A DNA stretch of 64,000 bases from Thermoproteota archaeon (lineage in GTDB: Archaea; Korarchaeota; Korarchaeia; Korarchaeales; Korarchaeaceae): positions 30,396 to 94,395 of the forward strand of contig JAOZGP010000004.1 of NCBI GenBank assembly GCA_027491735.1. The letters run 5' to 3'. Each line of letters begins with the position of its first letter. Within the stretch, counting starts at the first letter, position 1. The position numbers were made by a program, and so were the translations under genes. The notes beneath the pieces are model-generated. The model saw only the letters and a program-made list of their open reading frames with translations. It searched no databases and was not told the origin of the DNA. Shown in pieces: positions 35,862 through 46,900 of this stretch.

Positions 35862-37040
35862 TTACGTATAATTATTTCGTTTTTCAACGAAAGAAGGAAT
35901 TGAAGTCCCGTTTTTCTTCTGGGAAATTTTTAAATTTTTACTTAAAATCGATGATTTAGCAATTTTATATCTCTTTATAAGCTCCAAACACTCAGGAGTT
36001 GGGGTGCATCCTCCCCTGTCTGAACCACCTTTCCTGGACATGAATAGGTTAATCCCCAAAATCTTTTCAATAGATCTTACTCTCTTGTATATCGAGGCTG
36101 GTGATGTGTTAAGAGCTCTAGCAAGTCTGCTAAAGCTTCCTAGATCAGCTAATGCCGATAAAATTTCCAGATCATCCTCGTATATGCGTCTGCCGTCCTT
36201 GGTCACGAGGACCAAGGAGGCTGAGAAGGAGTACTTCGTTGATCGACTTATCTTGCTGCAGTTCAGCCGCACGATGCCTGCTATCTCGAGGGGTGAGTAG
36301 AGCATGTTGAGGGTTCCCTCCACAGGGCATTTCCCTACATATCCCGCCGAGTCCAGGAACACCATGCCGCAGTTCAACTTACAGTAGGGGCCGTCCAGGA
36401 CATATATTGGAAAATCTCTTCTGAAAGTGACCCGAACCATGTAGACGTCCATGAACTTTCTGAATGGCTCAGAGACCTCAAACCCCTGTCTCTCCATGAT
36501 GGCCACAGCGCTAGTGGAGCAGACCGTTGGAGGACAGAATATGGGCGGGGAGATCCACATCTGAACCCCCTTCTCCCTGATTAGATCTATACAGGTGAGA
36601 AGTTCCCTCTCATTTGTGTTTTGAGTGATAAACAGGGCTACTTTTACGTTTGCTCCTCTGGAGAGAAGGTATCTCATCATCTTCCTTGCCCCGGAGATGT
36701 CCGAGTGTGTGTAAGAAAAGAGAAAAATCTCATCCGGTATGAGCAGGCTTCTCCATCCTTCCTCCTCGGAGCCGGTTGAGGATGGAGTGAATACCCTGAG
36801 AGGGAGTCTTCTCTCCTTAACAGACATCATAAGATCCGTAACACCTGGATGGAGGAGCGGGTCCGGACATATGAAGCAAACCTCCGGTCTGTACCCGGAG
36901 CCTATCATGGCGTCCAACACGAGCTCGAGCTTATCTTTCTTGAGGTATGTGCGCTCTCCAGACTTGGTTTCTCTCCACGGGCACTGGGAGCAGGACGCAT
37001 CGCACCCCCTCACAGGTCGAACTATGAGTACGGGCTTCAT
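35862..37040 (-). CDS. Degenerate radical SAM-like Fe-S domain fused to C-terminal LysR/ModE-type HTH (CorR-like regulator)
   Basis: CDASCSQC; ICPDPLLHP; C..NC...D..G.V.KCP; GSFSRLARALNTSPASIYKRVRSIEKILGINLF..RKGG..RGG. Confidence 0.8.
   Translation of the reverse strand: MKPVLIVRPVRGCDASCSQCPWRETKSGERTYLKKDKLELVLDAMIGSGYRPEVCFICPDPLLHPGVTDLMMSVKERRLPLRVFTPSSTGSEEEGWRSLLIPDEIFLFSYTHSDISGARKMMRYLLSRGANVKVALFITQNTNERELLTCIDLIREKGVQMWISPPIFCPPTVCSTSAVAIMERQGFEVSEPFRKFMDVYMVRVTFRRDFPIYVLDGPYCKLNCGMVFLDSAGYVGKCPVEGTLNMLYSPLEIAGIVRLNCSKISRSTKYSFSASLVLVTKDGRRIYEDDLEILSALADLGSFSRLARALNTSPASIYKRVRSIEKILGINLFMSRKGGSDRGGCTPTPECLELIKRYKIAKSSILSKNLKISQKKNGTSIPSFVEKRNNYT
35867..35924 (-). promoter_or_regulatory. 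Candidate cooF promoter/operator inside 3' end of upstream regulator ORF
   Basis: TATA-like TAATTATA; TTTCGTT-N4-AACGAAA at 35875-35892; CGTTTTTC at 35878 and 35909. Confidence 0.45.
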
Positions 37041-37591
37041 GGAATCGCCTCCATCACCTCGGCCCTGAACTCACATAGGCCATCGCCAGCTGCCTGACAG
37101 CTCACCTCCTCCATGGGTCCTATTCTCACCCTGAGTATATCCTCGACCAGTGCTGCCAAGATGCCGGCCACGAACCTGCAGACCGGCTCCTTGGACTTCC
37201 TTCTCCTGGCCTCAAAGGAGTTGGAGACGGAGATCCTAACGAAGTTGTCCTCAATTTCTATCTTCTCTATCCTGCCGAACCCCAAGGTCTCAAATATGGA
37301 TGCAGCTATCCCGAAGAGCTCGTCCTTCTCGAATCTCTCTCTCATGGGAACTATTCCCTTCTCGTTGTGGGCCTTCATGAGCCTGTAGGCTGAGTAGTAT
37401 AGGACAGGGCCTATGGCCTTACTGCCAGCCACAACCGAGATTCCAGCCATGAAGTCGGCCCACCACTTGGTGGACATGATGAACACGTCCGGCAGAATTG
37501 CCCTGCCGAAAAGGGGTATATCAACCTCGACCCTTATACTTCCCTGATCGTTCTGGATCTTCCTGATGTTCTTCATCATCGGTAAAATCAA
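37037..37591 (-). CDS. V4R domain protein (CorQ-like)
   Basis: GFGR, NSFEA..PVCRFVAGIL, EVSCQAAGDGLCEF. Confidence 0.85.
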   Translation of the reverse strand: MILPMMKNIRKIQNDQGSIRVEVDIPLFGRAILPDVFIMSTKWWADFMAGISVVAGSKAIGPVLYYSAYRLMKAHNEKGIVPMRERFEKDELFGIAASIFETLGFGRIEKIEIEDNFVRISVSNSFEARRRKSKEPVCRFVAGILAALVEDILRVRIGPMEEVSCQAAGDGLCEFRAEVMEAIP

Positions 37592-37682
37592 GCTGGAAGA
37601 ACCTTAATAATAATCGTCTTCATCTTGATCAGCGGTGAGTTTTTAACAGATCTTTGTAGTTTATGGAAATAGACTCATACTA

Positions 37683-37870
37683 ATGGGATCGCTGCTCCCT
37701 TCAGAGGACCTAAGCACCGGGAGTGTTTGGACCTCGGGCAGTGATCTACCTTTGGTTGTTCTCCTGCGGCGGATCTTACAAGTTCCAGTAATCTCGGGAG
37801 TTTCGGCCTTCATTAGGTGAGGTCCTGAATCCGAAGAGTGATCTTCTCAATTTCTGTTGTTGGAAGACAT
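37683..37870 (+). pseudogene. Possible minimal nucleotidyltransferase remnant
   Basis: GSVWTSGSDLPLVVL resembles GS..SDxDLxV; early stop. Confidence 0.25.
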
Positions 37871-37947
37871 TGCCCGATCCACATGGCTGCTTTATCCAAC
37901 TCGTTGGAGCTTCTGGTGTTGATAGAATGAGAGCATCGAACCGAGGC

Positions 37948-38601
37948 CTATTCCACGATCTCAAGCTGAATATCAGGGATAAGCTTCCTCAGATGATCTC
38001 TCTCCTCCTCTCCGAACATCCACCAGGGGGTTATCACTTCTTTAGAGACAATGGCTGCTCTTTTATCGTCAGCATTCCCGAGGACCTCAATCAGCCCATT
38101 AAAGGCTTCATATACGGTCAAAACTGTTGGAAGGAGGGTCTCTTCCCTAGCCCTCTTCGGATGCTCCAGGGCTCCTATCGAGGCATATGTGAGATCTTTG
38201 AAGGGAATAAGCTCCATGCAAAGCTCCTCTGGGGAGCTCCTCTTTGACCAGCTTCTTTCTTTGTAGTCTTTCAGGATTGAGATGAGATCGTCCTCGATCC
38301 TAGATGGCTCTCCCCTCGCCTTCACCTTGATCCTGTCCAAGCGGCCAGACAGTCCCTTGAAGCACTGCACCATCAGGCTCTCCACCATGATGATCCTACT
38401 GAAAGCACAGGATAGCCTCAGCACGAACATCCATTCAGGCCTTAGCCTATGTCTAAGGGAAACAAGCTTATAACTGAGGATCATCGCGACCTTCTCATAA
38501 CGGATCAGTAGGTGTATCCTCTCAGAATCAGTGCTATGATTGAGTATCTTGCAGGAGGGAAGTAGCTTTTCGAGGAAGGATCTCACCGAGCGCATCCACA
38601 A
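37948..38601 (-). CDS. Hypothetical protein, paralog of 19694..20338
   Basis: 217-aa ORF with shared motifs. Confidence 0.7.
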   Translation of the reverse strand: MWMRSVRSFLEKLLPSCKILNHSTDSERIHLLIRYEKVAMILSYKLVSLRHRLRPEWMFVLRLSCAFSRIIMVESLMVQCFKGLSGRLDRIKVKARGEPSRIEDDLISILKDYKERSWSKRSSPEELCMELIPFKDLTYASIGALEHPKRAREETLLPTVLTVYEAFNGLIEVLGNADDKRAAIVSKEVITPWWMFGEEERDHLRKLIPDIQLEIVE

Positions 38602-38707
38602 ACGCGCTGGTTGAAGCTTATAGCCCTAACGCATTTTTTATTTCACAAAATATAAATAATGTAGATCCCTAAAAGCGCGGTGCAGGGCAAAAACAAAAAA
38701 GAGGAGA

Positions 38708-40429
38708 TCATGTTGAGGCTCCGCTGGAGGCTTTCTTGAACTCCGAATACCTCCTCAACCCGTCCACAGCAACTATTATGCCAAGTATGAACAGGACTAG
38801 ACCGACAACGCCGAACACTCCATTGAGAGCGAGGGCTACTCCCTTGTAAGCAGGAGCGGCGAGAGGACCTTTTGCCAAGGGTTTTCCTAGGAAGATTGCC
38901 CTGAAGAACTTAGCTGATTCGAATATCAGAGCTGCCTCACATGTTATTATCATGAAGATTGCTGGCCAGAATGTGTATCCCGTCGGCTTCTTCTGCTTGG
39001 CCAAGTAGACAGTCACGAGCGTCAAGGCTAATCCGGCCAAGAGCTGATTGGATCCTCCAAAGAGGAGCCACAGATTTATCCAGGCGCCTGTGTAAGCCAA
39101 TATATCTCCTATCACAAGCCCTATTATGGCTCCTACGTACTTATTGCTTAGAAGAGGTCTTCCTCCTACCATATCGGCCCATACAAGCCAGAAGAACCTC
39201 ACCGCTAGGAAACCTATGGTGAGGGCGTAGAGCTCGAGCCACATAGCAAAGAAGGCCTTGATCCAAGGGGCTGCAGCCGCTCCTCCGGTATAAGGAGCTA
39301 CAAGCCTCACGGCCCCCTCCACAAGGCAGTTCCACTTAACTCCTCCAAGTGTTTTGATGTCTGCAGGAGAGAGAACCATGTAGGCTGCCAGAGAGGCAAG
39401 AGCGAGGAGGCCTTCCGTCAGCATGGATCCACCACCGACTGGAAGAGCGTCTGTCTCCACATCAAGCTGCGGAGCTGATCCCGAGGTGCTGACCAAGCTG
39501 TGCCATCCGGAGATTGCTCCACATGCTATCGAGACGGTTAGAATGGGCCATATCGGTCCAGGAGTCCAGAAGTCATTTTTAATGCCAAGCCACCCTCCCC
39601 ATCCTATCTGCTGTATTGGAACATTCGTGGCTGGGGACACGAGGGCCCCGACTATGAGCAGCAATATTCCGAATATGGCAGGGTAGGATGCCACGTAGAC
39701 GATCGGTTGCGTGACGTACATCAGGGAGATCGTGGCCCCTATGAACATCAGCACCGACGTGAAGACTATCCATACCATGAGGTTCGAGTTGGATATCGGG
39801 AATAGCTTTCCAAGAACTATACCAGCTATCACTATTATGAGTCCGATTACTGTTGAGGTTACCACGCCAGTCCTGGCCTTGTAGAGGAGGGCACCGCTCA
39901 CTATTCCGCCTATGTAGAGGAATATCATTGCCAGAACGGACTCGGGGTATATTTTGAAGAAGAGGCTACATAACACAGCAAAGACGGCTATTATAAGTAT
40001 TAGGTAGAAGAACAGGAAGCCTAGAAGGGATTTCCTTGCTCTAGGACTTATCAGCTCATAAGTCAGTGGCCCCATGGACTTCCCTTCATTCCTCACGGAG
40101 AGGAACAGGGAGGAGTAATCATGGATCCACCCTATGAAGAAGTTTCCGACCAAGATCCATATGAGGGCTGGAATCCATCCGTAAAACAGGGCTATGAATG
40201 GGCCGAGGATGGGACCAAGGCCTGCTATCCCCTTGAACTGGAATCCATAGAGGACGTACTTGCTCACAGGGAAGAAGGTTATCCCGTCCATGTACATGTG
40301 AGCCGGAGTTGCCCTCTTTGGATCGGGTTCCCAGACGTTCCTATCATACCATTTGGCGTAGAGGTAGTATGCTATGAGGTAGACCACTATCCCGAGCGCC
40401 ACAAACCAGATGGGATACATCCTCGACAT
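38708..40429 (-). CDS. cstA: Carbon starvation protein A family transporter
   Basis: TPAH..DG..F.P, IAGLGPILGP, GWIPA, HDY, IACGAISGWHSLV, FGGSNQLLA. Confidence 0.93.
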   Translation of the reverse strand: MSRMYPIWFVALGIVVYLIAYYLYAKWYDRNVWEPDPKRATPAHMYMDGITFFPVSKYVLYGFQFKGIAGLGPILGPFIALFYGWIPALIWILVGNFFIGWIHDYSSLFLSVRNEGKSMGPLTYELISPRARKSLLGFLFFYLILIIAVFAVLCSLFFKIYPESVLAMIFLYIGGIVSGALLYKARTGVVTSTVIGLIIVIAGIVLGKLFPISNSNLMVWIVFTSVLMFIGATISLMYVTQPIVYVASYPAIFGILLLIVGALVSPATNVPIQQIGWGGWLGIKNDFWTPGPIWPILTVSIACGAISGWHSLVSTSGSAPQLDVETDALPVGGGSMLTEGLLALASLAAYMVLSPADIKTLGGVKWNCLVEGAVRLVAPYTGGAAAAPWIKAFFAMWLELYALTIGFLAVRFFWLVWADMVGGRPLLSNKYVGAIIGLVIGDILAYTGAWINLWLLFGGSNQLLAGLALTLVTVYLAKQKKPTGYTFWPAIFMIITCEAALIFESAKFFRAIFLGKPLAKGPLAAPAYKGVALALNGVFGVVGLVLFILGIIVAVDGLRRYSEFKKASSGAST

Positions 40430-40504
40430 CCTCCTCTTTTCGAGTCGTTGGGTAACGCGACATGAACAGTTATAAACTTTTTTAAAGAGTTGACAGGAAA
40501 TTGG

Positions 40505-40538
40505 CGATAAGACGGATAAAAGTCGATAATTTCAATAA
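40505..40538. repeat. Phased direct repeats upstream of cstA TATA box
   Basis: CGATAA 40505, GGATAA 40514, CGATAA 40524, CAATAA 40533 (9/10/9 spacing); TTTATAAC on minus strand at 40476-40469. Confidence 0.65.
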
Positions 40539-40540
40539 AG

Positions 40541-41146
40541 GTGCTTATGATGGAAGCGGGTTTCGTCGTGGTTCTAGCCATCACCACCCTGATGGTGTTG
40601 TGGTTCCTGGCCGGGAGGAGGATGAACTTCAAAAGGCAGAGTCATCTCTGGAGGGAGGTTGCTCCGAAAATAAAGAGATATTCGAGGAAGGTGAACTTCA
40701 GGGGATTGGGATCCGGAGGTTTTCAGGTGAGCTTTCGAGGAGGAGGTCCCCTTTCAAGGGTGGAGCTGTTTTTCGTCCTCTTGGATAGGGAGAATCTTCC
40801 CCACCTCCTGTTTCAAAAGGCTGTGGGGAGAGGAGATGAGGTCTATCTAAGGGCCTCCTTCACAAGAAGCCCTGACTTCAGGCTGAGGATATCCGAGAGA
40901 GAGGAGAGCATGCCAAAAGTGAACTGGATAGATCTTGGAGAGGAGCTCAAGGTGTTCTCTGAGGATCCCTCTAGGGCCGCCAAGATCCTCCTCAATGACA
41001 GGTTCAGAGATCTATTCAGTAAGATCAAGATAAGGGGTTTGTCGATAGCTCCAGAGGAGCCACATCTCATCATGAGATGTGATGCTGATCCGGAGAGCCT
41101 GGAGAACATCCTTAGAATGGCGGAGTTCCTGGCATCACATGTCTAA
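40541..41146 (+). CDS. Single-pass membrane protein, CCDC47/DUF1682-like by motif spacing
   Basis: N-terminal TM then GRRMN..W; G-x15-RENL-x12-DEV; family call is inference. Confidence 0.7.
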   Translation: MLMMEAGFVVVLAITTLMVLWFLAGRRMNFKRQSHLWREVAPKIKRYSRKVNFRGLGSGGFQVSFRGGGPLSRVELFFVLLDRENLPHLLFQKAVGRGDEVYLRASFTRSPDFRLRISEREESMPKVNWIDLGEELKVFSEDPSRAAKILLNDRFRDLFSKIKIRGLSIAPEEPHLIMRCDADPESLENILRMAEFLASHV

Positions 41147-41649
41147 TGACATGAGAGCTCCTGAAGGAGATCCTTCAGGAACAGCACTTCATCTTTGTTC
41201 CTGCCTAATATTTTTATCTCAAGTTTCCTGCCTGTGACGTCACAGAAGAAACATAGAATGACTTCCCAGAGAAGGCCCCTCTTGAAGAGACCCTCCCTAA
41301 CTCTCCTCAAGACGTAACCGCAGTCATGCCCATTAACCCTCATCACTCCGTGATCCTCCGATTTCCTTGTCATCTTCTCCACCCACCTCCAAGGATCAAA
41401 ACCTCTCCTAATCACGGGCTCTGATGCGCTGACCTTTAGCAGAACCTCTCCTCCATCATCTGAGATCACTCCAACGGTTATATGACCATTAGTGGCCCAG
41501 GTTATTCCTCCTGACTCCTTGGACGTCTCTACCTCAACCATTCTAAGAGGAAAAACTCTCCAACCCTCCGGAACGCTTATCGACACAAACCTAACAGTTC
41601 CTAGGATTATGTTCTTGGCGTCTAGGTCAACGTGTGCTCTCACGGGCAT
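41143..41649 (-). CDS. Hypothetical protein
   Basis: ORF 41143..41712, likely ATG 41649; VPEGW, FFCDVTGR, terminal CH. Confidence 0.7.
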   Translation of the reverse strand: MPVRAHVDLDAKNIILGTVRFVSISVPEGWRVFPLRMVEVETSKESGGITWATNGHITVGVISDDGGEVLLKVSASEPVIRRGFDPWRWVEKMTRKSEDHGVMRVNGHDCGYVLRRVREGLFKRGLLWEVILCFFCDVTGRKLEIKILGRNKDEVLFLKDLLQELSCH

Positions 41650-41736
41650 GCAGAAGATGGCTGAAGCTAAAAACATTCCACGAGGATTATGGCTTTGATT
41701 TTTTGTACCCATATTATATTATATAATATATCTAAG

Positions 41737-41759
41737 TTTGATCATGACATGTGATCAAA
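41737..41759. promoter_or_regulatory. Inverted repeat TTTGATCA-N7-TGATCAAA
   Basis: Perfect 8-bp arms next to AT palindrome TATATTATATAATATA (41715-41730). Confidence 0.4.
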
Positions 41760-42390
41760 GACCTCTGCTGAAGAAATCCCTGACATAGTTCTCCAGATCC
41801 CTCGTGCTGTGTCCTGGGCATATCCTCCCAGCAAACTTCTTGATGATGTACACTAGGTCCTCCACGAGTTCCTCCTTTTCCCATTGAGACTTCTTACCCA
41901 AGACCGTCTCTACCTTAACACCGTATCCCTTGATGAGCTTGTTCAAGTAATTAAAGCAGAAGCGGGAGATCTCCTCGGTATCAAACAAGACCACGACATC
42001 AACGCCTCCATTGACGATCATGTCCAGAAGCTTCATGAGACCTTTTCTCTCCTCTCCCTCGAATGAGGACATTTCCTTGATCACCTTGACCACTCTGTAG
42101 TTCTTCCTATGACAGTATCTCCTCAGGATCTCTACTCTTCTCTCAAGCTCATCCCTCAATCCAAGAAATCTGGACCTCACGTATATGACCGCTCTCCTCC
42201 CTTCCTCCCTCGCCTCCAGAATCCTCTTAACCTCCTCATTAGAGATTCTGTAGTGTCCTCCTCTGGTCCTCATGGCATTCACATAGCCAGATCTTATCCA
42301 GCATCTGATTGTCGATGGATGAAGATTTAACATCTCAGCGAGCTCGCTCACCTTTAGATATTTCTTATCGATTTTATCGCTTTTGCTCAT
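41755..42390 (-). CDS. IS607-family TnpA-like serine recombinase with MerR-like HTH; catalytic motifs degenerate; no tnpB
   Basis: YLKVSELAEMLNLHPSTIRCW..RTRGGHYR; IYVRSR instead of YARVS; EEISRF instead of DRLxRF; EELVEDL. Confidence 0.85.
   Translation of the reverse strand: MSKSDKIDKKYLKVSELAEMLNLHPSTIRCWIRSGYVNAMRTRGGHYRISNEEVKRILEAREEGRRAVIYVRSRFLGLRDELERRVEILRRYCHRKNYRVVKVIKEMSSFEGEERKGLMKLLDMIVNGGVDVVVLFDTEEISRFCFNYLNKLIKGYGVKVETVLGKKSQWEKEELVEDLVYIIKKFAGRICPGHSTRDLENYVRDFFSRGL
42365..42379. repeat. TTATCG direct repeat, 9-bp spacing
   Basis: TTATCG at 42365 and 42374, same motif and relative orientation as upstream of cstA. Confidence 0.5.
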
Positions 42391-42456
42391 AAATCTCACA
42401 TCTCTAGAGAAGAATCCTTATTAATTTATATATTGTGATGTATCCGAGGTGATTCT

Positions 42457-42765
42457 GTGATATTCAGGAGGAAGAAGAAGGAAGAGAATAAGGCCGGGAA
42501 AAAAGAAGGAGCGACTAGTGAGGCTAAGGAGGCAGTTAAGGGTCTTATCTATGGAATGTCAGCCCACGCGGTGACAAGACAGATGCTGAAGACCAGGATG
42601 TACCTTGAGCACCTCTTCATGCTCATAACCCTGGGCGACATGCTTGGGATACCGATACTCCCCCCCTACTACTCGCTAAAGCTCCTTCCGTACGCTGTTC
42701 CAAACATAAAGACCTGGAAGAGGAGCCTTTTCAAGGAGAGGGACATAACTGACATGTTCTACTGA
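42457..42765 (+). CDS. Small CstA/ArsA-associated protein, copy 1
   Basis: EHLFMLITLGDMLGIPILPPYYSLKLLPY..W; GAGGTGA SD. Confidence 0.8.
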   Translation: MIFRRKKKEENKAGKKEGATSEAKEAVKGLIYGMSAHAVTRQMLKTRMYLEHLFMLITLGDMLGIPILPPYYSLKLLPYAVPNIKTWKRSLFKERDITDMFY

Positions 42766-42774
42766 GGTGCCGAT

Positions 42775-43776
42775 ATGAAGTCCCTTAAGGAGTTCCTGGA
42801 CGAGAGGCCTGACATGAAGGTGATAATCAACGCTGGGAAGGGAGGGCTTGGGAAGACCACATCGAGTGCAGCAATGTCCTACTGGTTTGCCAAACATGGG
42901 AAGAGACCTCTCTGCTTCAGCACAGATCCGCAAGCATCGCTAAGTGATATATTTGAGAGTGATCTGTTCGGAAAGGGAATTCAAGAGATAGAGAAGAACT
43001 TATTTGTCGTCGAGATAGACGCAGATAGGAGAATTCAAGAGTTCCAGGAGGAGATCAGGAATAAGATAAAGGAAATGTATGGACTTGACGAAATACCTGA
43101 AGAGATAGACGAATACATAACCACCTCTGCCTATGAGCCAGCGATGCATGAATCAGCGACCTACGACGCTATGGCTGAGCTTTTGGCTGAGGGAAAGTAC
43201 AATCCGTACATCTTCGACATGCCACCCTTCGGACATGGTGTGAGGATGATAAGCATGGCCAAGATTCTGGACGCCTGGATAGATAAGATGGAAGAGACCA
43301 GGAGAAAAGCCGCTCAATATGCTGAGGCTGCGGCCTCACTGAGAGGAGCTGCAGCGAAGACGGAAGAGGAGGTCCTGAAGGAGCTCAGGTCCATAAGGAG
43401 GAGGTTGGACTTCTTCAGTGAGATCCTATCAAATCCTGAATACTCTGCCTTCTTCATGGTGATAATACCGGAGAAGATGGCGATATTGGACACCGAGAGG
43501 GCTTTAGGAATGTTTAAAAGGCTAGGAATAGAGATGGCTGGCGTGATAGTCAATCAGGTGTATCCAAGGGAGCTCCTGAAGAGGCCTGATCTAAGTGACT
43601 TCCTGAGGAAGAGGATAGAGATGCAGCAGAAGTACCTCAAGGAGATAAAGGAGAAATTTGGTGAGTATGTGAGGGCTATAGTTCCGATGTTCGATAGGGA
43701 GCCGAAGGGGATGGAGATGCTGGCTAAGGTAGCTCATCACCTGTTCGAGGAGCCAGGTTTGGAGGTGTTAGAATGA
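42775..43776 (+). CDS. ArsA/Get3-family ATPase, copy 1
   Basis: GKGGLGKT, STDPQASLSD, DMPPFGH, PEKM, VNQ. Confidence 0.92.
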   Translation: MKSLKEFLDERPDMKVIINAGKGGLGKTTSSAAMSYWFAKHGKRPLCFSTDPQASLSDIFESDLFGKGIQEIEKNLFVVEIDADRRIQEFQEEIRNKIKEMYGLDEIPEEIDEYITTSAYEPAMHESATYDAMAELLAEGKYNPYIFDMPPFGHGVRMISMAKILDAWIDKMEETRRKAAQYAEAAASLRGAAAKTEEEVLKELRSIRRRLDFFSEILSNPEYSAFFMVIIPEKMAILDTERALGMFKRLGIEMAGVIVNQVYPRELLKRPDLSDFLRKRIEMQQKYLKEIKEKFGEYVRAIVPMFDREPKGMEMLAKVAHHLFEEPGLEVLE

Positions 43777-44822
43777 GCGAGGAGAGCATGATTCTCGTGG
43801 AGAAGCCCGTTGGATTTAGGGATTATGTGACGACCCACGAGTCCTTGAAGTTCTTCTTCACCGGCGGAAAAGGAGGGGTCGGAAAGACCGTGGCCGCTGC
43901 AGGAATAGCAGCCTACTTTGCCAAGGAGGGAAAGAAGGTTCTGTTGGCCTCCCTTAACCCAGTGCACTCCCTCTCCAGCTTGTTTAGTCAGGATCTCTCT
44001 GGAGGAGAGATAAAACTGGTGGAGGGGATAGAAAATCTGGACGCAATTGAGGTCGACATAAGCGACAAGGTGGCGAGTTACAAGAGACAGCTAGCTGATA
44101 GGCTCTCCTGGTTCCTGAAGTGGGCAGACATACCACTGAAAGCATCTGAATTTATAGATATAGCTGCTACAAACCCCGCTTTTGAGGAAAGCGCTATGTT
44201 CGATGCCACTGTGGACATATTACTCCAGCAAGGAGAGAACTATGACAAAATAGTTTTTGACTGCGCTGCTGTGGCAAATGCGGTTAGACTTCTTGGGCTC
44301 AACAAGATCTACGGGCTCTGGCTTCAGAGGATGATAAAAAGCAGAGAAGAGGCTCTTTCGCTAAGGGTAAAGCTTTCCTTCAGGAAAGATAAGGCCATGG
44401 AGGAGATAAAGAAGGATCCTTTGATGAAGGACCTGCTTGGGCTCAAGGAGAGGACCGATAGGGCAAGCGAGGTGCTCGGAGATCCTAGCAGGACGGCCTT
44501 CTTCTTCGTGACCCTGCCACTAGCTCTTCCAATATCAGTCGTTGAGAGGTTCATAAACATGGTCAAGGGCTTCAACATAGCGATAGGAGGGGTTGTTGTC
44601 AATGGGGTCATAAGAAGGGAGCTCGCTGAGAGGGGTACTGAATATCTGAGGAACAAGTACGAGGAGCAGAAGAGATACCTTGAGATGATAGAGGATAAGA
44701 TGGGCCCACTTGTCAGAGCCGTTATTCCTCTGTATGAGACCGAGATAGTTGGAACTGAGATGATCCTCAGAATAGCGGATGATCTGTCGACATGGACCCC
44801 CGAGAAAGGACTGTTCCTTTGA
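43773..44822 (+). CDS. ArsA/Get3-family ATPase, copy 2, deviant switch motifs
   Basis: GKGGVGKT, SLNPVHSLS, DCAAVAN. Confidence 0.9.
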   Translation: MSEESMILVEKPVGFRDYVTTHESLKFFFTGGKGGVGKTVAAAGIAAYFAKEGKKVLLASLNPVHSLSSLFSQDLSGGEIKLVEGIENLDAIEVDISDKVASYKRQLADRLSWFLKWADIPLKASEFIDIAATNPAFEESAMFDATVDILLQQGENYDKIVFDCAAVANAVRLLGLNKIYGLWLQRMIKSREEALSLRVKLSFRKDKAMEEIKKDPLMKDLLGLKERTDRASEVLGDPSRTAFFFVTLPLALPISVVERFINMVKGFNIAIGGVVVNGVIRRELAERGTEYLRNKYEEQKRYLEMIEDKMGPLVRAVIPLYETEIVGTEMILRIADDLSTWTPEKGLFL

Positions 44823-44832
44823 GGAGATTGCT

Positions 44833-45084
44833 TTGGGGTTAAAGGAGCATCTAAAGGATTTCTTTTTTGGTTTTGCTGTCTTACCTCATCTAAGAACTGT
44901 TGTAAAGATGCGCTTTGAGGAGGACATGTTCATGATGACCTTGACCATAGGGGACATGATCGGTCTGCCCATAATGCCCCCCGTTTACAAGCTCTCCCTG
45001 CTCCCCTACTGGTTGCCTCTTATAAGGAGATGGAAGAAAGAGCTGCTTGGTGAGAAGGGCGCTCTTGAGAAGATAGAGGAATAG
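44833..45084 (+). CDS. Small CstA/ArsA-associated protein, copy 2
   Basis: EDMFMMTLTIGDMIGLPIMPPVYKLSLLPY..W; TTG 44833 after GAGGAG. Confidence 0.8.
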   Translation: MGLKEHLKDFFFGFAVLPHLRTVVKMRFEEDMFMMTLTIGDMIGLPIMPPVYKLSLLPYWLPLIRRWKKELLGEKGALEKIEE

Positions 45085-46373: not shown

Positions 46374-46900
46374 GTGACCTTCCCCTCTAAAGACGGGGGC
46401 TTCCACCAGAAGCCTTACGGAGGTTGGGGAGTGTGCATCACAAAGCTGCACACTCCTTCTGGCTGGGTCACTACAGCCCCTGACCGCAGCGTATAGCCCA
46501 TGCTCGTTTTAGTATGTTTTTAGCTCCGTTGATATCGGTGTTGACAGCATACCCACAGTCCTTCAGATGAAAACTCCTTGTGAAGGTCTCTCTGTGTCCA
46601 TTGAGCCACATCTCGAACACTGCTTCGACGTGTTGTGTCAGGAACCTCCATCGCCTTGTATTTGATGTATTCCTTCAGGCGGTAGAAGGCATCGAGTTAA
46701 CCCTCCTGTTCACTTCCCTCCCTTGCCGTTGTCTCTGACGCCGTCTAAGTTTCCCATAGCGATTATTGCATTGTGCCTCCCAGCTTCATCAACGACTTCC
46801 TTTGCTATCCTGCTTTCTTAGCGACATTTTTGTAAAGATCAAGCGTTCGGCTTGCAGCGGAATTGTGAGCGAGTGGTTTTGTATGAAGACCTATAATCGT
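46374..46900 (-). mobile_element. Internally deleted IS200/IS605-family element: tnpB pseudogene plus right end
   Basis: Fragments IAKEVVDEA..IIAMGNL, YRLKEYIKYKA, NTSKQCSRCG, CGYAVNTDINGAKNIL; end GAAGCCCCCGTCTTTAGAGGGGAAGGTCAC; left boundary approximate. Confidence 0.85.

Follow-up and report, generated by a model that had tools for sequence, protein, structure and literature searches.

What becomes of an IS607 transposase gene that has lost its catalytic site and is retained in the chromosome is the question raised by a gene of a Korarchaeia genome, hereafter referred to as T, which occupies 41755..42390 on the reverse strand of the 64-kb stretch of DNA analyzed as a whole (the window, in whose coordinates all positions are given unless a contig is named). 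The genome to which the window belongs (G000) comprises 1.36 Mb in 41 contigs. A preliminary description of the locus had read T as an IS607 serine transposase (TnpA) that lost catalysis and was taken over as a regulator of the cstA–arsA locus. Loss of catalysis combined with long-term retention was borne out by the existence of a nucleophile-less clade, a low ratio of nonsynonymous (dN) to synonymous (dS) substitution rates (omega, 0.065), the divergent pairing with the s1–arsA1 genes in 5/5 contigs showing the 5′ side of T, and the absence of tnpB. Judged by its sequence, T is a descendant of IS607 TnpA that fails the functional definition of this family, having no nucleophile, no tnpB, and no mobility. 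Regarding its role, T is probably a domesticated dimeric DNA-binding regulator that would use fossil transposon-end motifs, a reading that we favor with some reserve, since both binding and regulation are predicted from sequence.

The open reading frame (ORF) of T is full-length and stop-free, as previously described, and encodes 211 amino acids (aa) from an ATG codon or 214 aa from an alternative GTG start at 42399, which adds MRF; the matching VRFM reading also occurs in “Ca. Methanodesulfokora washburnensis” MDKW (G003), a member of Korarchaeia placed in the same genus as G000, and in the metagenome contig L098. Pfam profiles detected a MerR-type helix-turn-helix (HTH) at residues 11-61 (HTH_17, 5.7e-13; MerR, 4e-8; PF00376 at residues 14-48) followed by Resolvase at residues 68-187 (8.1e-10), and the NCBIfam model NF033518, “IS607 family transposase,” matched residues 16-190 with 128 bits against a cut-off of 110. 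The order of domains characteristic of TnpA (i.e., winged HTH, resolvase-type core, and split helix E) was recovered by Pfam, by an AlphaFold2 model, and by superposition on the structure 6dgc_A, and the retention of the HTH and of the dimer helix EELVEDL claimed for T was verified by Pfam and by alignment to the same structure. Regulators of the MerR family combine the HTH with a long dimerization coiled coil and an effector-binding C-terminus, of which T matched the HTH only: the MerR equivalog TIGR02051 scored 19 bits against a cut-off of 151, and the C-terminus of T has the resolvase fold. The “excise” model TIGR01764 was matched with 42.1 bits against 28.8, although this model names a domain only.

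The best solved relative of T was the catalytic domain of ISC1926 TnpA (6dgc_A, E 2.1e-25), whose active-site serine is Ser74 (Chen et al. 2018, PMC6188088, in the portions of that study on which we draw here and below). The joint alteration of the YARVS, GSG, DRLxR, and RLYG motifs noted earlier was confirmed by the residue-by-residue alignment with 6dgc_A, in which YARVSS is replaced by YVRSRF, ASGL by SSFE, DRLTRFGF by EEISRFCF, and GKIYG by GRICP, with EELVEDL unchanged. Arg74 of T (codon 42169-42171) aligned with Ser74 of ISC1926, and no nucleophile equivalent to this residue or to Ser59 of IS1535 TnpA was found in T. The active-site residues still present are Y70, R72, R115, and R143, the last three being invariant across the nucleophile-less clade. 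In this genome the DRLxR motif reads EEISR, with R143 as the only residue kept, whereas the orthologues retain DRLxR. It had been suggested that a serine one position earlier (YVRS) might leave some activity; this was not supported, as the orthologues have Ala or Val where T has Ser73, and T has moreover lost the Asp-Arg of DRLxR. The serines neighboring the nucleophile position are not shared by the whole clade (Ser73 in T, Ser75 in P0004), and residual recombinase activity of T is unlikely.

The altered site is not the peculiarity of a lone decayed copy. By a word-indexed search the closest relatives of T were P0002-P0005, at 48-52% identity, the next matches reaching at most 41%, and among 1.84 billion cluster representatives, searched exhaustively without a profile, 2245 homologues reached E ≤ 1e-3, the query alone reaching E ≤ 1e-30 and the next best protein being 37% identical. 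In a quick IQ-TREE phylogeny of 58 rows, the five nucleophile-less proteins were monophyletic with a support of 99 by the Shimodaira–Hasegawa-like approximate likelihood ratio test (SH-aLRT), which answered positively the question, left by the preliminary description, of whether such a clade exists. All five lack Ser at the nucleophile column: T has Arg there, P0004 has Gln, and the remaining three (P0002, P0003, and P0005) have Cys. The sister of the clade (SH-aLRT 86) was the TnpA of G008, a canonical IS607 transposase from the same archaeal family that is 42% identical to T and similar in the HTH recognition region. Unlike T, this protein carries YARVSS, ASGL, and DRLTRFGF, is followed 74 nucleotides (nt) downstream by a 360-aa tnpB (element L023 9650-11414), and has no ArsA neighbors; a second copy of the element was sought to define its ends, but it proved single-copy and no end motifs were derivable. 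The clade was present in G000, G003, and G011 (the last from another genus), that is, in 3 of the 36 species genomes of the family, and in a few metagenome contigs, among which L095 and L098 are overlapping halves of one gene from one metagenome assembly and L096 is a further contig. The terminal branch of T in G000 was long (0.71).

Over the family at large, the nucleophile was surveyed in 148 representatives of 170-260 aa, including the five clade members. Ser occupied the column in 131/148, and the 17 without it comprised the clade and 12 of the 143 other representatives (P0022, P0038, P0045, P0046, P0077, P0096, P0103, P0107, P0113, P0137, P0160, and P0163). Some of these 12 also lack DRLxR, P0077 is plainly misaligned, and four may be alignment shifts because Ser stands one position later. 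Judging from these sequences, dead TnpAs may have arisen more than once.

The retention of T was next visible in its pattern of substitution. Between the G003 and L095 genes (85% aa identity), the Nei–Gojobori method gave dS 1.12, dN 0.073, and omega 0.065, and the comparison by domain proposed earlier indicated purifying selection throughout (HTH, 0.063; dead core, 0.073; helix E, 0.040). Over 86 codons, the G011 and L096 genes show about 10 synonymous differences and no nonsynonymous one. In deeper pairs, in which synonymous sites are saturated, aa identity was 67-69% in the HTH, 47-55% in the core, and 29-39% in the C-terminal part, the HTH thus being the most conserved portion between distant orthologues. 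The frames were open in G000, G003, G011, and L095, either over the full length or to the contig end, whereas neutral substitution of the G003 gene down to 50% identity left only 3 of 2000 simulated genes stop-free, with a mean of 6.9 stops. The divergence of T roughly tracks that of the DNA polymerase subunit PolD DP2 (identity of G003, G000, and G011 to the L095 organism of 88/65/60% for PolD DP2 and 85/51/56% for T), which points to vertical descent, somewhat accelerated in G000. The opposite fate was found in the same genome, whose IS607 tnpA content is one full copy, T, and one decayed unrelated copy: contig C8 (L002 1624-2047) holds a canonical tnpA with YARVSS that is frameshifted and interrupted by TAG, followed by a 114-aa tnpB fragment. 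This element offers a within-genome contrast to T, because there the motif was kept and the frame broken.

The protein is predicted to have preserved its fold and its mode of association. Based on a 50-row alignment, AlphaFold2 modeled T with a predicted local distance difference test (pLDDT) of 88.1 and a predicted template modeling score (pTM) of 0.68, and the top PDB match of the model in Foldseek was 6dgc_A (target-normalized TM 0.83, root-mean-square deviation 2.4 Å), so that in the model the fold is intact and the chemistry gone. The homodimer model reached an interface score (ipSAE) of 0.71, the best control scoring 0.00. Of 30 solved homomers, 20 attained this mark, compared with 1 among 23 proteins whose structure was solved as a single chain; across the dimer runs the contact agreement was at least 72% and the partner pLDDT at least 76. 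The predicted interface (residues 114-156 and 171-210), to which the helix E region contributes, coincides with the helix B/D and helix E surfaces published for the IS607 TnpA dimer (PMC6188088). Since similar dimers (6DGC, 3LHK) have already been solved, this result conveys likeness rather than independent proof.

If T still binds DNA as a dimer, its sites would be expected where the ends of the former element lay. In IS1535, 9-bp motifs repeated directly close to the left end are the sites at which TnpA dimers nucleate, and IS607 coding sequences occupy nearly the whole element (PMC6188088), so that left-end motifs are expected exactly at the 5′ end of tnpA. Two 9-bp direct repeats, here called T-box 1 (TCGATTTTATCGCTTTT), are indeed found there as putative sites, at the tnpA-proximal end. 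G003 and L098 carry TTGATTTTCTCGATTTC at this position; the G011 element agrees with that of G003 at 17/17 positions and the L096 element differs at one. In G011 and L096 the element is non-coding, being separated from the protein by an in-frame stop and a start 12 codons later, and its preservation there argues that the DNA rather than the peptide is conserved. A 17-nt pattern built solely from the T 5′ sites (TYGATTTTMTCGMYTTY) was also found in the cstA–201 intergenic region of 4/4 T-bearing loci seen, with 0 mismatches in G003, 1 in L098, 1 in G011, and 2 in G000 (T-box 2, from which TTATCG-type repeats continue to about 40500), and matches as good arose in 0, 0, 0, and 6 of 5000 shuffles of the respective regions. 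In the six corresponding intergenic regions of three genomes of genus g4, which lack T, the best matches had 4-6 mismatches, which is chance level. The roughly 2.9 Mb of G003 contained two perfect matches, exactly the T 5′ site and the cstA–201 site, and no perfect match occurred in the T-less genomes G019 and G024.

Other matches and similarities were recorded in the course of these scans. An extra 1-mismatch match in G000 was set aside as chance, as it lies inside a 275-aa ORF, and two T-box-like matches with 3 mismatches were seen at 37575 and 37838. Next to the T start, G003 and L098 share 37 identical nt, against a third-position identity of 65-68%, a stretch that overlaps the promoter. 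Around the T gene, no repeats were found beyond chance-like matches.

The genomic context separates T from a mobile element. An IS607 element would be recognized by a downstream tnpB and by several copies or variable loci; T is a single full copy that lies divergent from s1–ATPase 1 in 5/5 contigs showing its 5′ side (G000, G003, L098, L096, and G011), the kind of fixed synteny that the preliminary description proposed to test for. The absence of an adjacent tnpB was likewise upheld: tblastn with the G008 TnpB was negative near T in the window and in L022, L095, L004, and L098, and the neighbors are the 201-aa and 189-aa ORFs, without Pfam matches. These two genes were considered as remnants of tnpB and rejected, given that weak homologues of both occur at T-less g4 loci and that the best match of the G008 TnpB there spans 13 residues with E 2.7. 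The operon described as arsA is divergent from T across a 66-nt spacer; as to its content, it consists of two GET3/ArsA ATPases with small proteins, and no arsenic-specific genes were seen at 42457-45084. The ATPases match TIGR00345 with 231 and 200 bits and BagA/BagB weakly, and s1 and s2 are paralogous proteins of about 100 aa that weakly resemble “cory-CC-star” NF041419 (32 and 24 bits where the cut-off is 80). This segment may be a conserved module of an ATPase pair with small partners. The coordinates of these features are collected in table 1.

Table 1. Genes, domains, and candidate sites at the T locus, in window coordinates.
Feature	Position	Strand	Remarks
cstA, carbon starvation protein A family	38708..40429	-	Conserved neighborhood member
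T-box 2	40519..40535	-	Pattern match with 2 mismatches between the divergent cstA and 201-aa genes, 6 nt ahead of the start of the latter
201-aa gene	40541..41146	+	Conserved with the locus
189-aa gene	41143..41712	-	Conserved with the locus
T gene	41755..42390	-	
Split helix E/C-terminal region of T, residues 164-211	41758..41901	-	Conserved EELVEDL; alignment, model
Resolvase-type core of T, residues 66-163	41902..42195	-	Inactivated site; 6dgc_A alignment, model
MerR/excisionase-type winged HTH of T, N-terminal, residues 11-62	42205..42360	-	Pfam, alignment, model
T-box 1	42368..42384	+	Codons 3-8 of T; expected place of the IS607 left-end subterminal motif
T–s1 divergent intergenic region, 66 nt	42391..42456		A/T-rich TATA-like stretch common to both directions
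s1 small protein	42457-42765	+	First gene of the divergent operon 42457..45084
GET3/ArsA-family ATPase 1	42775-43776	+	Divergent operon
GET3/ArsA-family ATPase 2	43773-44822	+	Divergent operon
s2 small protein	44779-45084	+	Last gene of the divergent operon

The pairing of T with s1 has outlived considerable rearrangement. The block from T to s2 (41755-45084; L022 9688-12975) is inverted relative to cstA and the 201-aa and 189-aa genes in G003 and L098 as compared with G000 and G011, no inverted repeats being found at its borders, and a small gene is placed differently in G011. In the G003 lineage, a metallophosphoesterase and the PolD large subunit lie downstream of T. In genus g4 the same locus exists without T, with a small gene or cstA directly upstream of s1 instead, which indicates that T was a later insertion beside the s1 promoter. 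A relative lacking the gene had been named in advance as grounds for rejecting the regulatory proposal; such a locus was thus seen, making T a later addition that is not required, while within its own clade T has been retained. Neither T nor s1 nor cstA was found in G001 and G002, genomes of 82% and 72% completeness from the same genus as G000. L097, a variant of the G003 species (99-100% identical), carries a 5.5-kb deletion extending between about codon 24 of T and the 3′ end of cstA. Gone with it are the initial ~24 codons of T, s1 and s2 together with the two ATPases, the 189-aa and 201-aa genes, most of cstA, and the two T-boxes. At the junction (L097 7900-8168 against G003 contig C87 27733 and 33267), 9 nt overlap, and the contig ends 127 nt farther on. 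T thus comes and goes with the module. Several contig breaks in L095, L096, L097, L098, and G011 contig C214 fall inside or right beside T; the deletion variant suggests structural polymorphism at the locus as one cause.

Some further features of the window were recorded. A 49-aa ORF at 46471-46620(-) resembles the C-terminal end of TnpB (PF07282 at 23.9 bits, the cut-off being 26.3; tblastn to the TnpB of a relative, E 0.052); it probably remains from a different element, as its position is not that of a tnpB belonging to T. Between cstA and a 392-aa protein with a LysR-type HTH (35862-37040), a segment of about 1.7 kb (37041-38707) holds a single 217-aa ORF with a TTG start and no Pfam or Rfam match. 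The segment 30494-35208 encodes a 642-aa CO dehydrogenase of the Prismane/CooS family next to a 270-aa CooC-like P-loop ATPase and a 656-aa HdrA-like Fe-S flavoprotein. The Rfam scan of the window gave 0 matches at the gathering score.

Together, these observations can be arranged into the following course of events. An IS607 element would have inserted next to the s1–arsA1 promoter in the ancestor of two Korarchaeia genera, and tnpB would then have been lost, with TnpA losing its nucleophile and keeping the winged-helix domain, the dimer-forming core, and helix E. The present dimer would set its two HTH domains on the adjacent 9-bp direct repeats of the T-box. T-box 1 would represent the former left-end subterminal motifs, now at +4 to +22 of the T coding sequence and, in G011, upstream of the shifted start; the second T-box, in the 201/cstA promoter region, would be bound too. 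In this way, T would repress or tune its own promoter and the neighboring promoters of the cstA/201/189/s1–ArsA module. A protein bound on an archaeal start site, or a short way downstream of one, would block transcription; T is therefore expected to repress itself and to control the 201-aa gene, and possibly cstA and the s1–ATPase operon as well. The DNA binding to the T-box, the sign of the regulation, and the set of controlled genes are all part of what we infer. The two regions singled out beforehand as likely targets, 40470-40540 and 42350-42440, both contain a T-box, in agreement with a regulator of this locus; the candidate sites nevertheless face the promoters of T itself and of the 201-aa gene and cstA, and not arsA directly.

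Several observations weigh against regulation by T. Taken by itself, synteny says little about a functional link, as the T–s1 spacer of 66-120 nt is a small target for breakpoints, and the role of T would have to be accessory, given the T-less g4 locus and the failure to find the module and T in G001 and G002. The T-box pattern was recognized post hoc, shared ancestry explains in part why the four loci have the cstA–201 site in common, and at ≤2 mismatches the pattern was not enriched genome-wide over a reversed-pattern control (7 vs. 14 in G000), so that only its best matches carry weight. In an alignment of five T–s1 spacers, no operator common across genera was found. Finally, the G000 copy is the most degenerate of all and the sole one without the Asp-Arg of DRLxR, and the selection estimates concern the G003/L095 and G011/L096 pairs rather than this copy.

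The presence of two T-boxes per locus also fits a structural role. In one specific form, which we hold to be improbable but worth stating, the dead T would synapse the two T-boxes as a fossil paired-end complex without cutting them, thereby looping the T–s1 promoters to the cstA–201 promoters 1.85 kb away. IS1535 TnpA synapses two ends into such a complex without catalysis (PMC6188088), the T-boxes of G000 form an inverted pair at this distance, and the active-site residues R72, R115, and R143 have stayed invariant even in the dead clade. If true, T would switch the whole cstA/201/189/GET3–ArsA module as a unit; it would then be an archaeal regulator of DNA architecture that descends from a transposase, and would represent one among several IS607 TnpA lineages that lack the nucleophile independently of each other. 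Under the broader version, to which we grant slightly less credit, T would either bridge the T-boxes and loop the DNA or serve the GET3/ArsA-type module in some other way. The same observations speak for it; in the inverted block of G003, however, the T-boxes are direct and 3.8 kb apart, so that no fixed geometry is preserved.

It is somewhat more doubtful that T restrains IS607 elements rather than regulating host genes, acting as a dominant-negative subunit or as a competitor for element ends. In other families, transposition is known to be inhibited by transposases that are truncated or inactive. As modeled, T keeps the dimer interface and the HTH such a role would demand, and potential targets exist within the same family of genomes, namely the intact element of G008 and the decayed one on contig C8 of G000. 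This proposal accounts poorly for a single-copy gene at a fixed locus and for a second T-box in a host promoter region; moreover, IS607 copies are few in T-bearing genomes, and in the 170 nt that precede the G008 tnpA no T-box was recognized by eye.

Very little speaks for T being a non-functional relic of an old IS607 insertion whose frame has not yet been broken. The missing catalytic residues and tnpB, the especially degenerate G000 copy, and the frequency of Ser-less proteins in the family (12/143), which makes decay look common, would fit such a relic; omega, by contrast, is low in all domains, the frames have remained open in G000, G003, G011, and L095 despite saturated dS, which neutral simulation seldom reproduced, and the truly decayed element of G000 shows the reverse pattern. 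Just as implausible is a recombinase still working through a neighboring Ser or Cys (Ser73 in G000, Cys74 in the G003 group, Ser75 in G011), for instance to invert or excise the block from T to s2, for although that block is inverted between G000 and G003 and one junction of the natural deletion lies inside T, no position holds a nucleophile conserved in the clade, the Asp-Arg of DRLxR is also lost in G000, the inversion borders lack inverted repeats, and the 9-nt overlap at the deletion junction is unlike the 2-bp crossover typical of serine recombinases, whose stagger is 2 bp (PMC6188088).

Returning to T as a regulator, its position among known systems can be outlined. With the TnpAs of the IS607 family (ISC1926, 6DGC; IS1535; IS607; MJ0014, 3LHK), T shares the domain order, 37% identity to the ISC1926 core in Foldseek at the TM value given above, the predicted dimer surfaces, and the 9-bp direct repeats at the tnpA-proximal end. 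Unlike them, it has Arg74 in place of Ser, lacks the Asp-Arg of DRLxR in this copy and tnpB, and is found as a single copy whose chromosomal position is fixed and which, like a host gene, evolves under purifying selection. BldC of Streptomyces is reported to bind direct repeats head-to-tail. The HTH of T aligns with that protein (phmmer E 2.3e-5; Foldseek target-normalized TM 0.87 over 49 columns; 6AMK/6AMA), and by analogy T most likely works like a small direct-repeat-binding HTH regulator of this kind. T is however not a BldC member, as the family model NF033787 scored 37.5 bits against a cut-off of 77, and, unlike BldC, which is an HTH alone, T also has the dead recombinase domain.

The domestication of transposases into regulators is well documented in eukaryotes. 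Within the IS200/IS605- and IS607-type elements, the TldR proteins, shown recently in bacteria, are nuclease-dead, TnpB-derived repressors (bioRxiv 10.1101/2023.11.30.569447, in the part of that preprint drawn on here) and provide a parallel for what is proposed for T, i.e., an element protein that loses catalysis and becomes a transcription factor. The difference is that TldR derives from the accessory RNA-guided TnpB, whereas T derives from the serine transposase and would recognize DNA through protein, at former transposon-end motifs. IS607-like sequences have also been proposed to be domesticated in eukaryotes, with a dN/dS of 0.06 (Gilbert and Cordaux 2013, PMC3673617), an argument from low dN/dS comparable to the 0.065 obtained for T. 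Those genes were horizontally acquired, and in the part of that paper on which we rely no function or binding site is proposed for them, whereas T is prokaryotic and exhibits fixed synteny and a candidate operator. In the full-text literature outside subscription journals and supplements, we found no report of an IS607 TnpA that is catalytically dead and yet kept as a prokaryotic host gene.

The taxonomic reach of these observations is narrow, the clade having been found in the three species genomes of one family and the few metagenome contigs described above. The label “IS607 family transposase” assigned by automatic pipelines to proteins such as T overstates the mobile-element load of Korarchaeia genomes. 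T provides a compact and testable system, made up of a protein of 211 aa, a pair of candidate 17-bp sites, and loci that naturally occur with and without the gene. More generally, if the regulatory reading is right, this case would illustrate how a transposon end and the protein that binds it may turn, in one step, into an operator–repressor pair.

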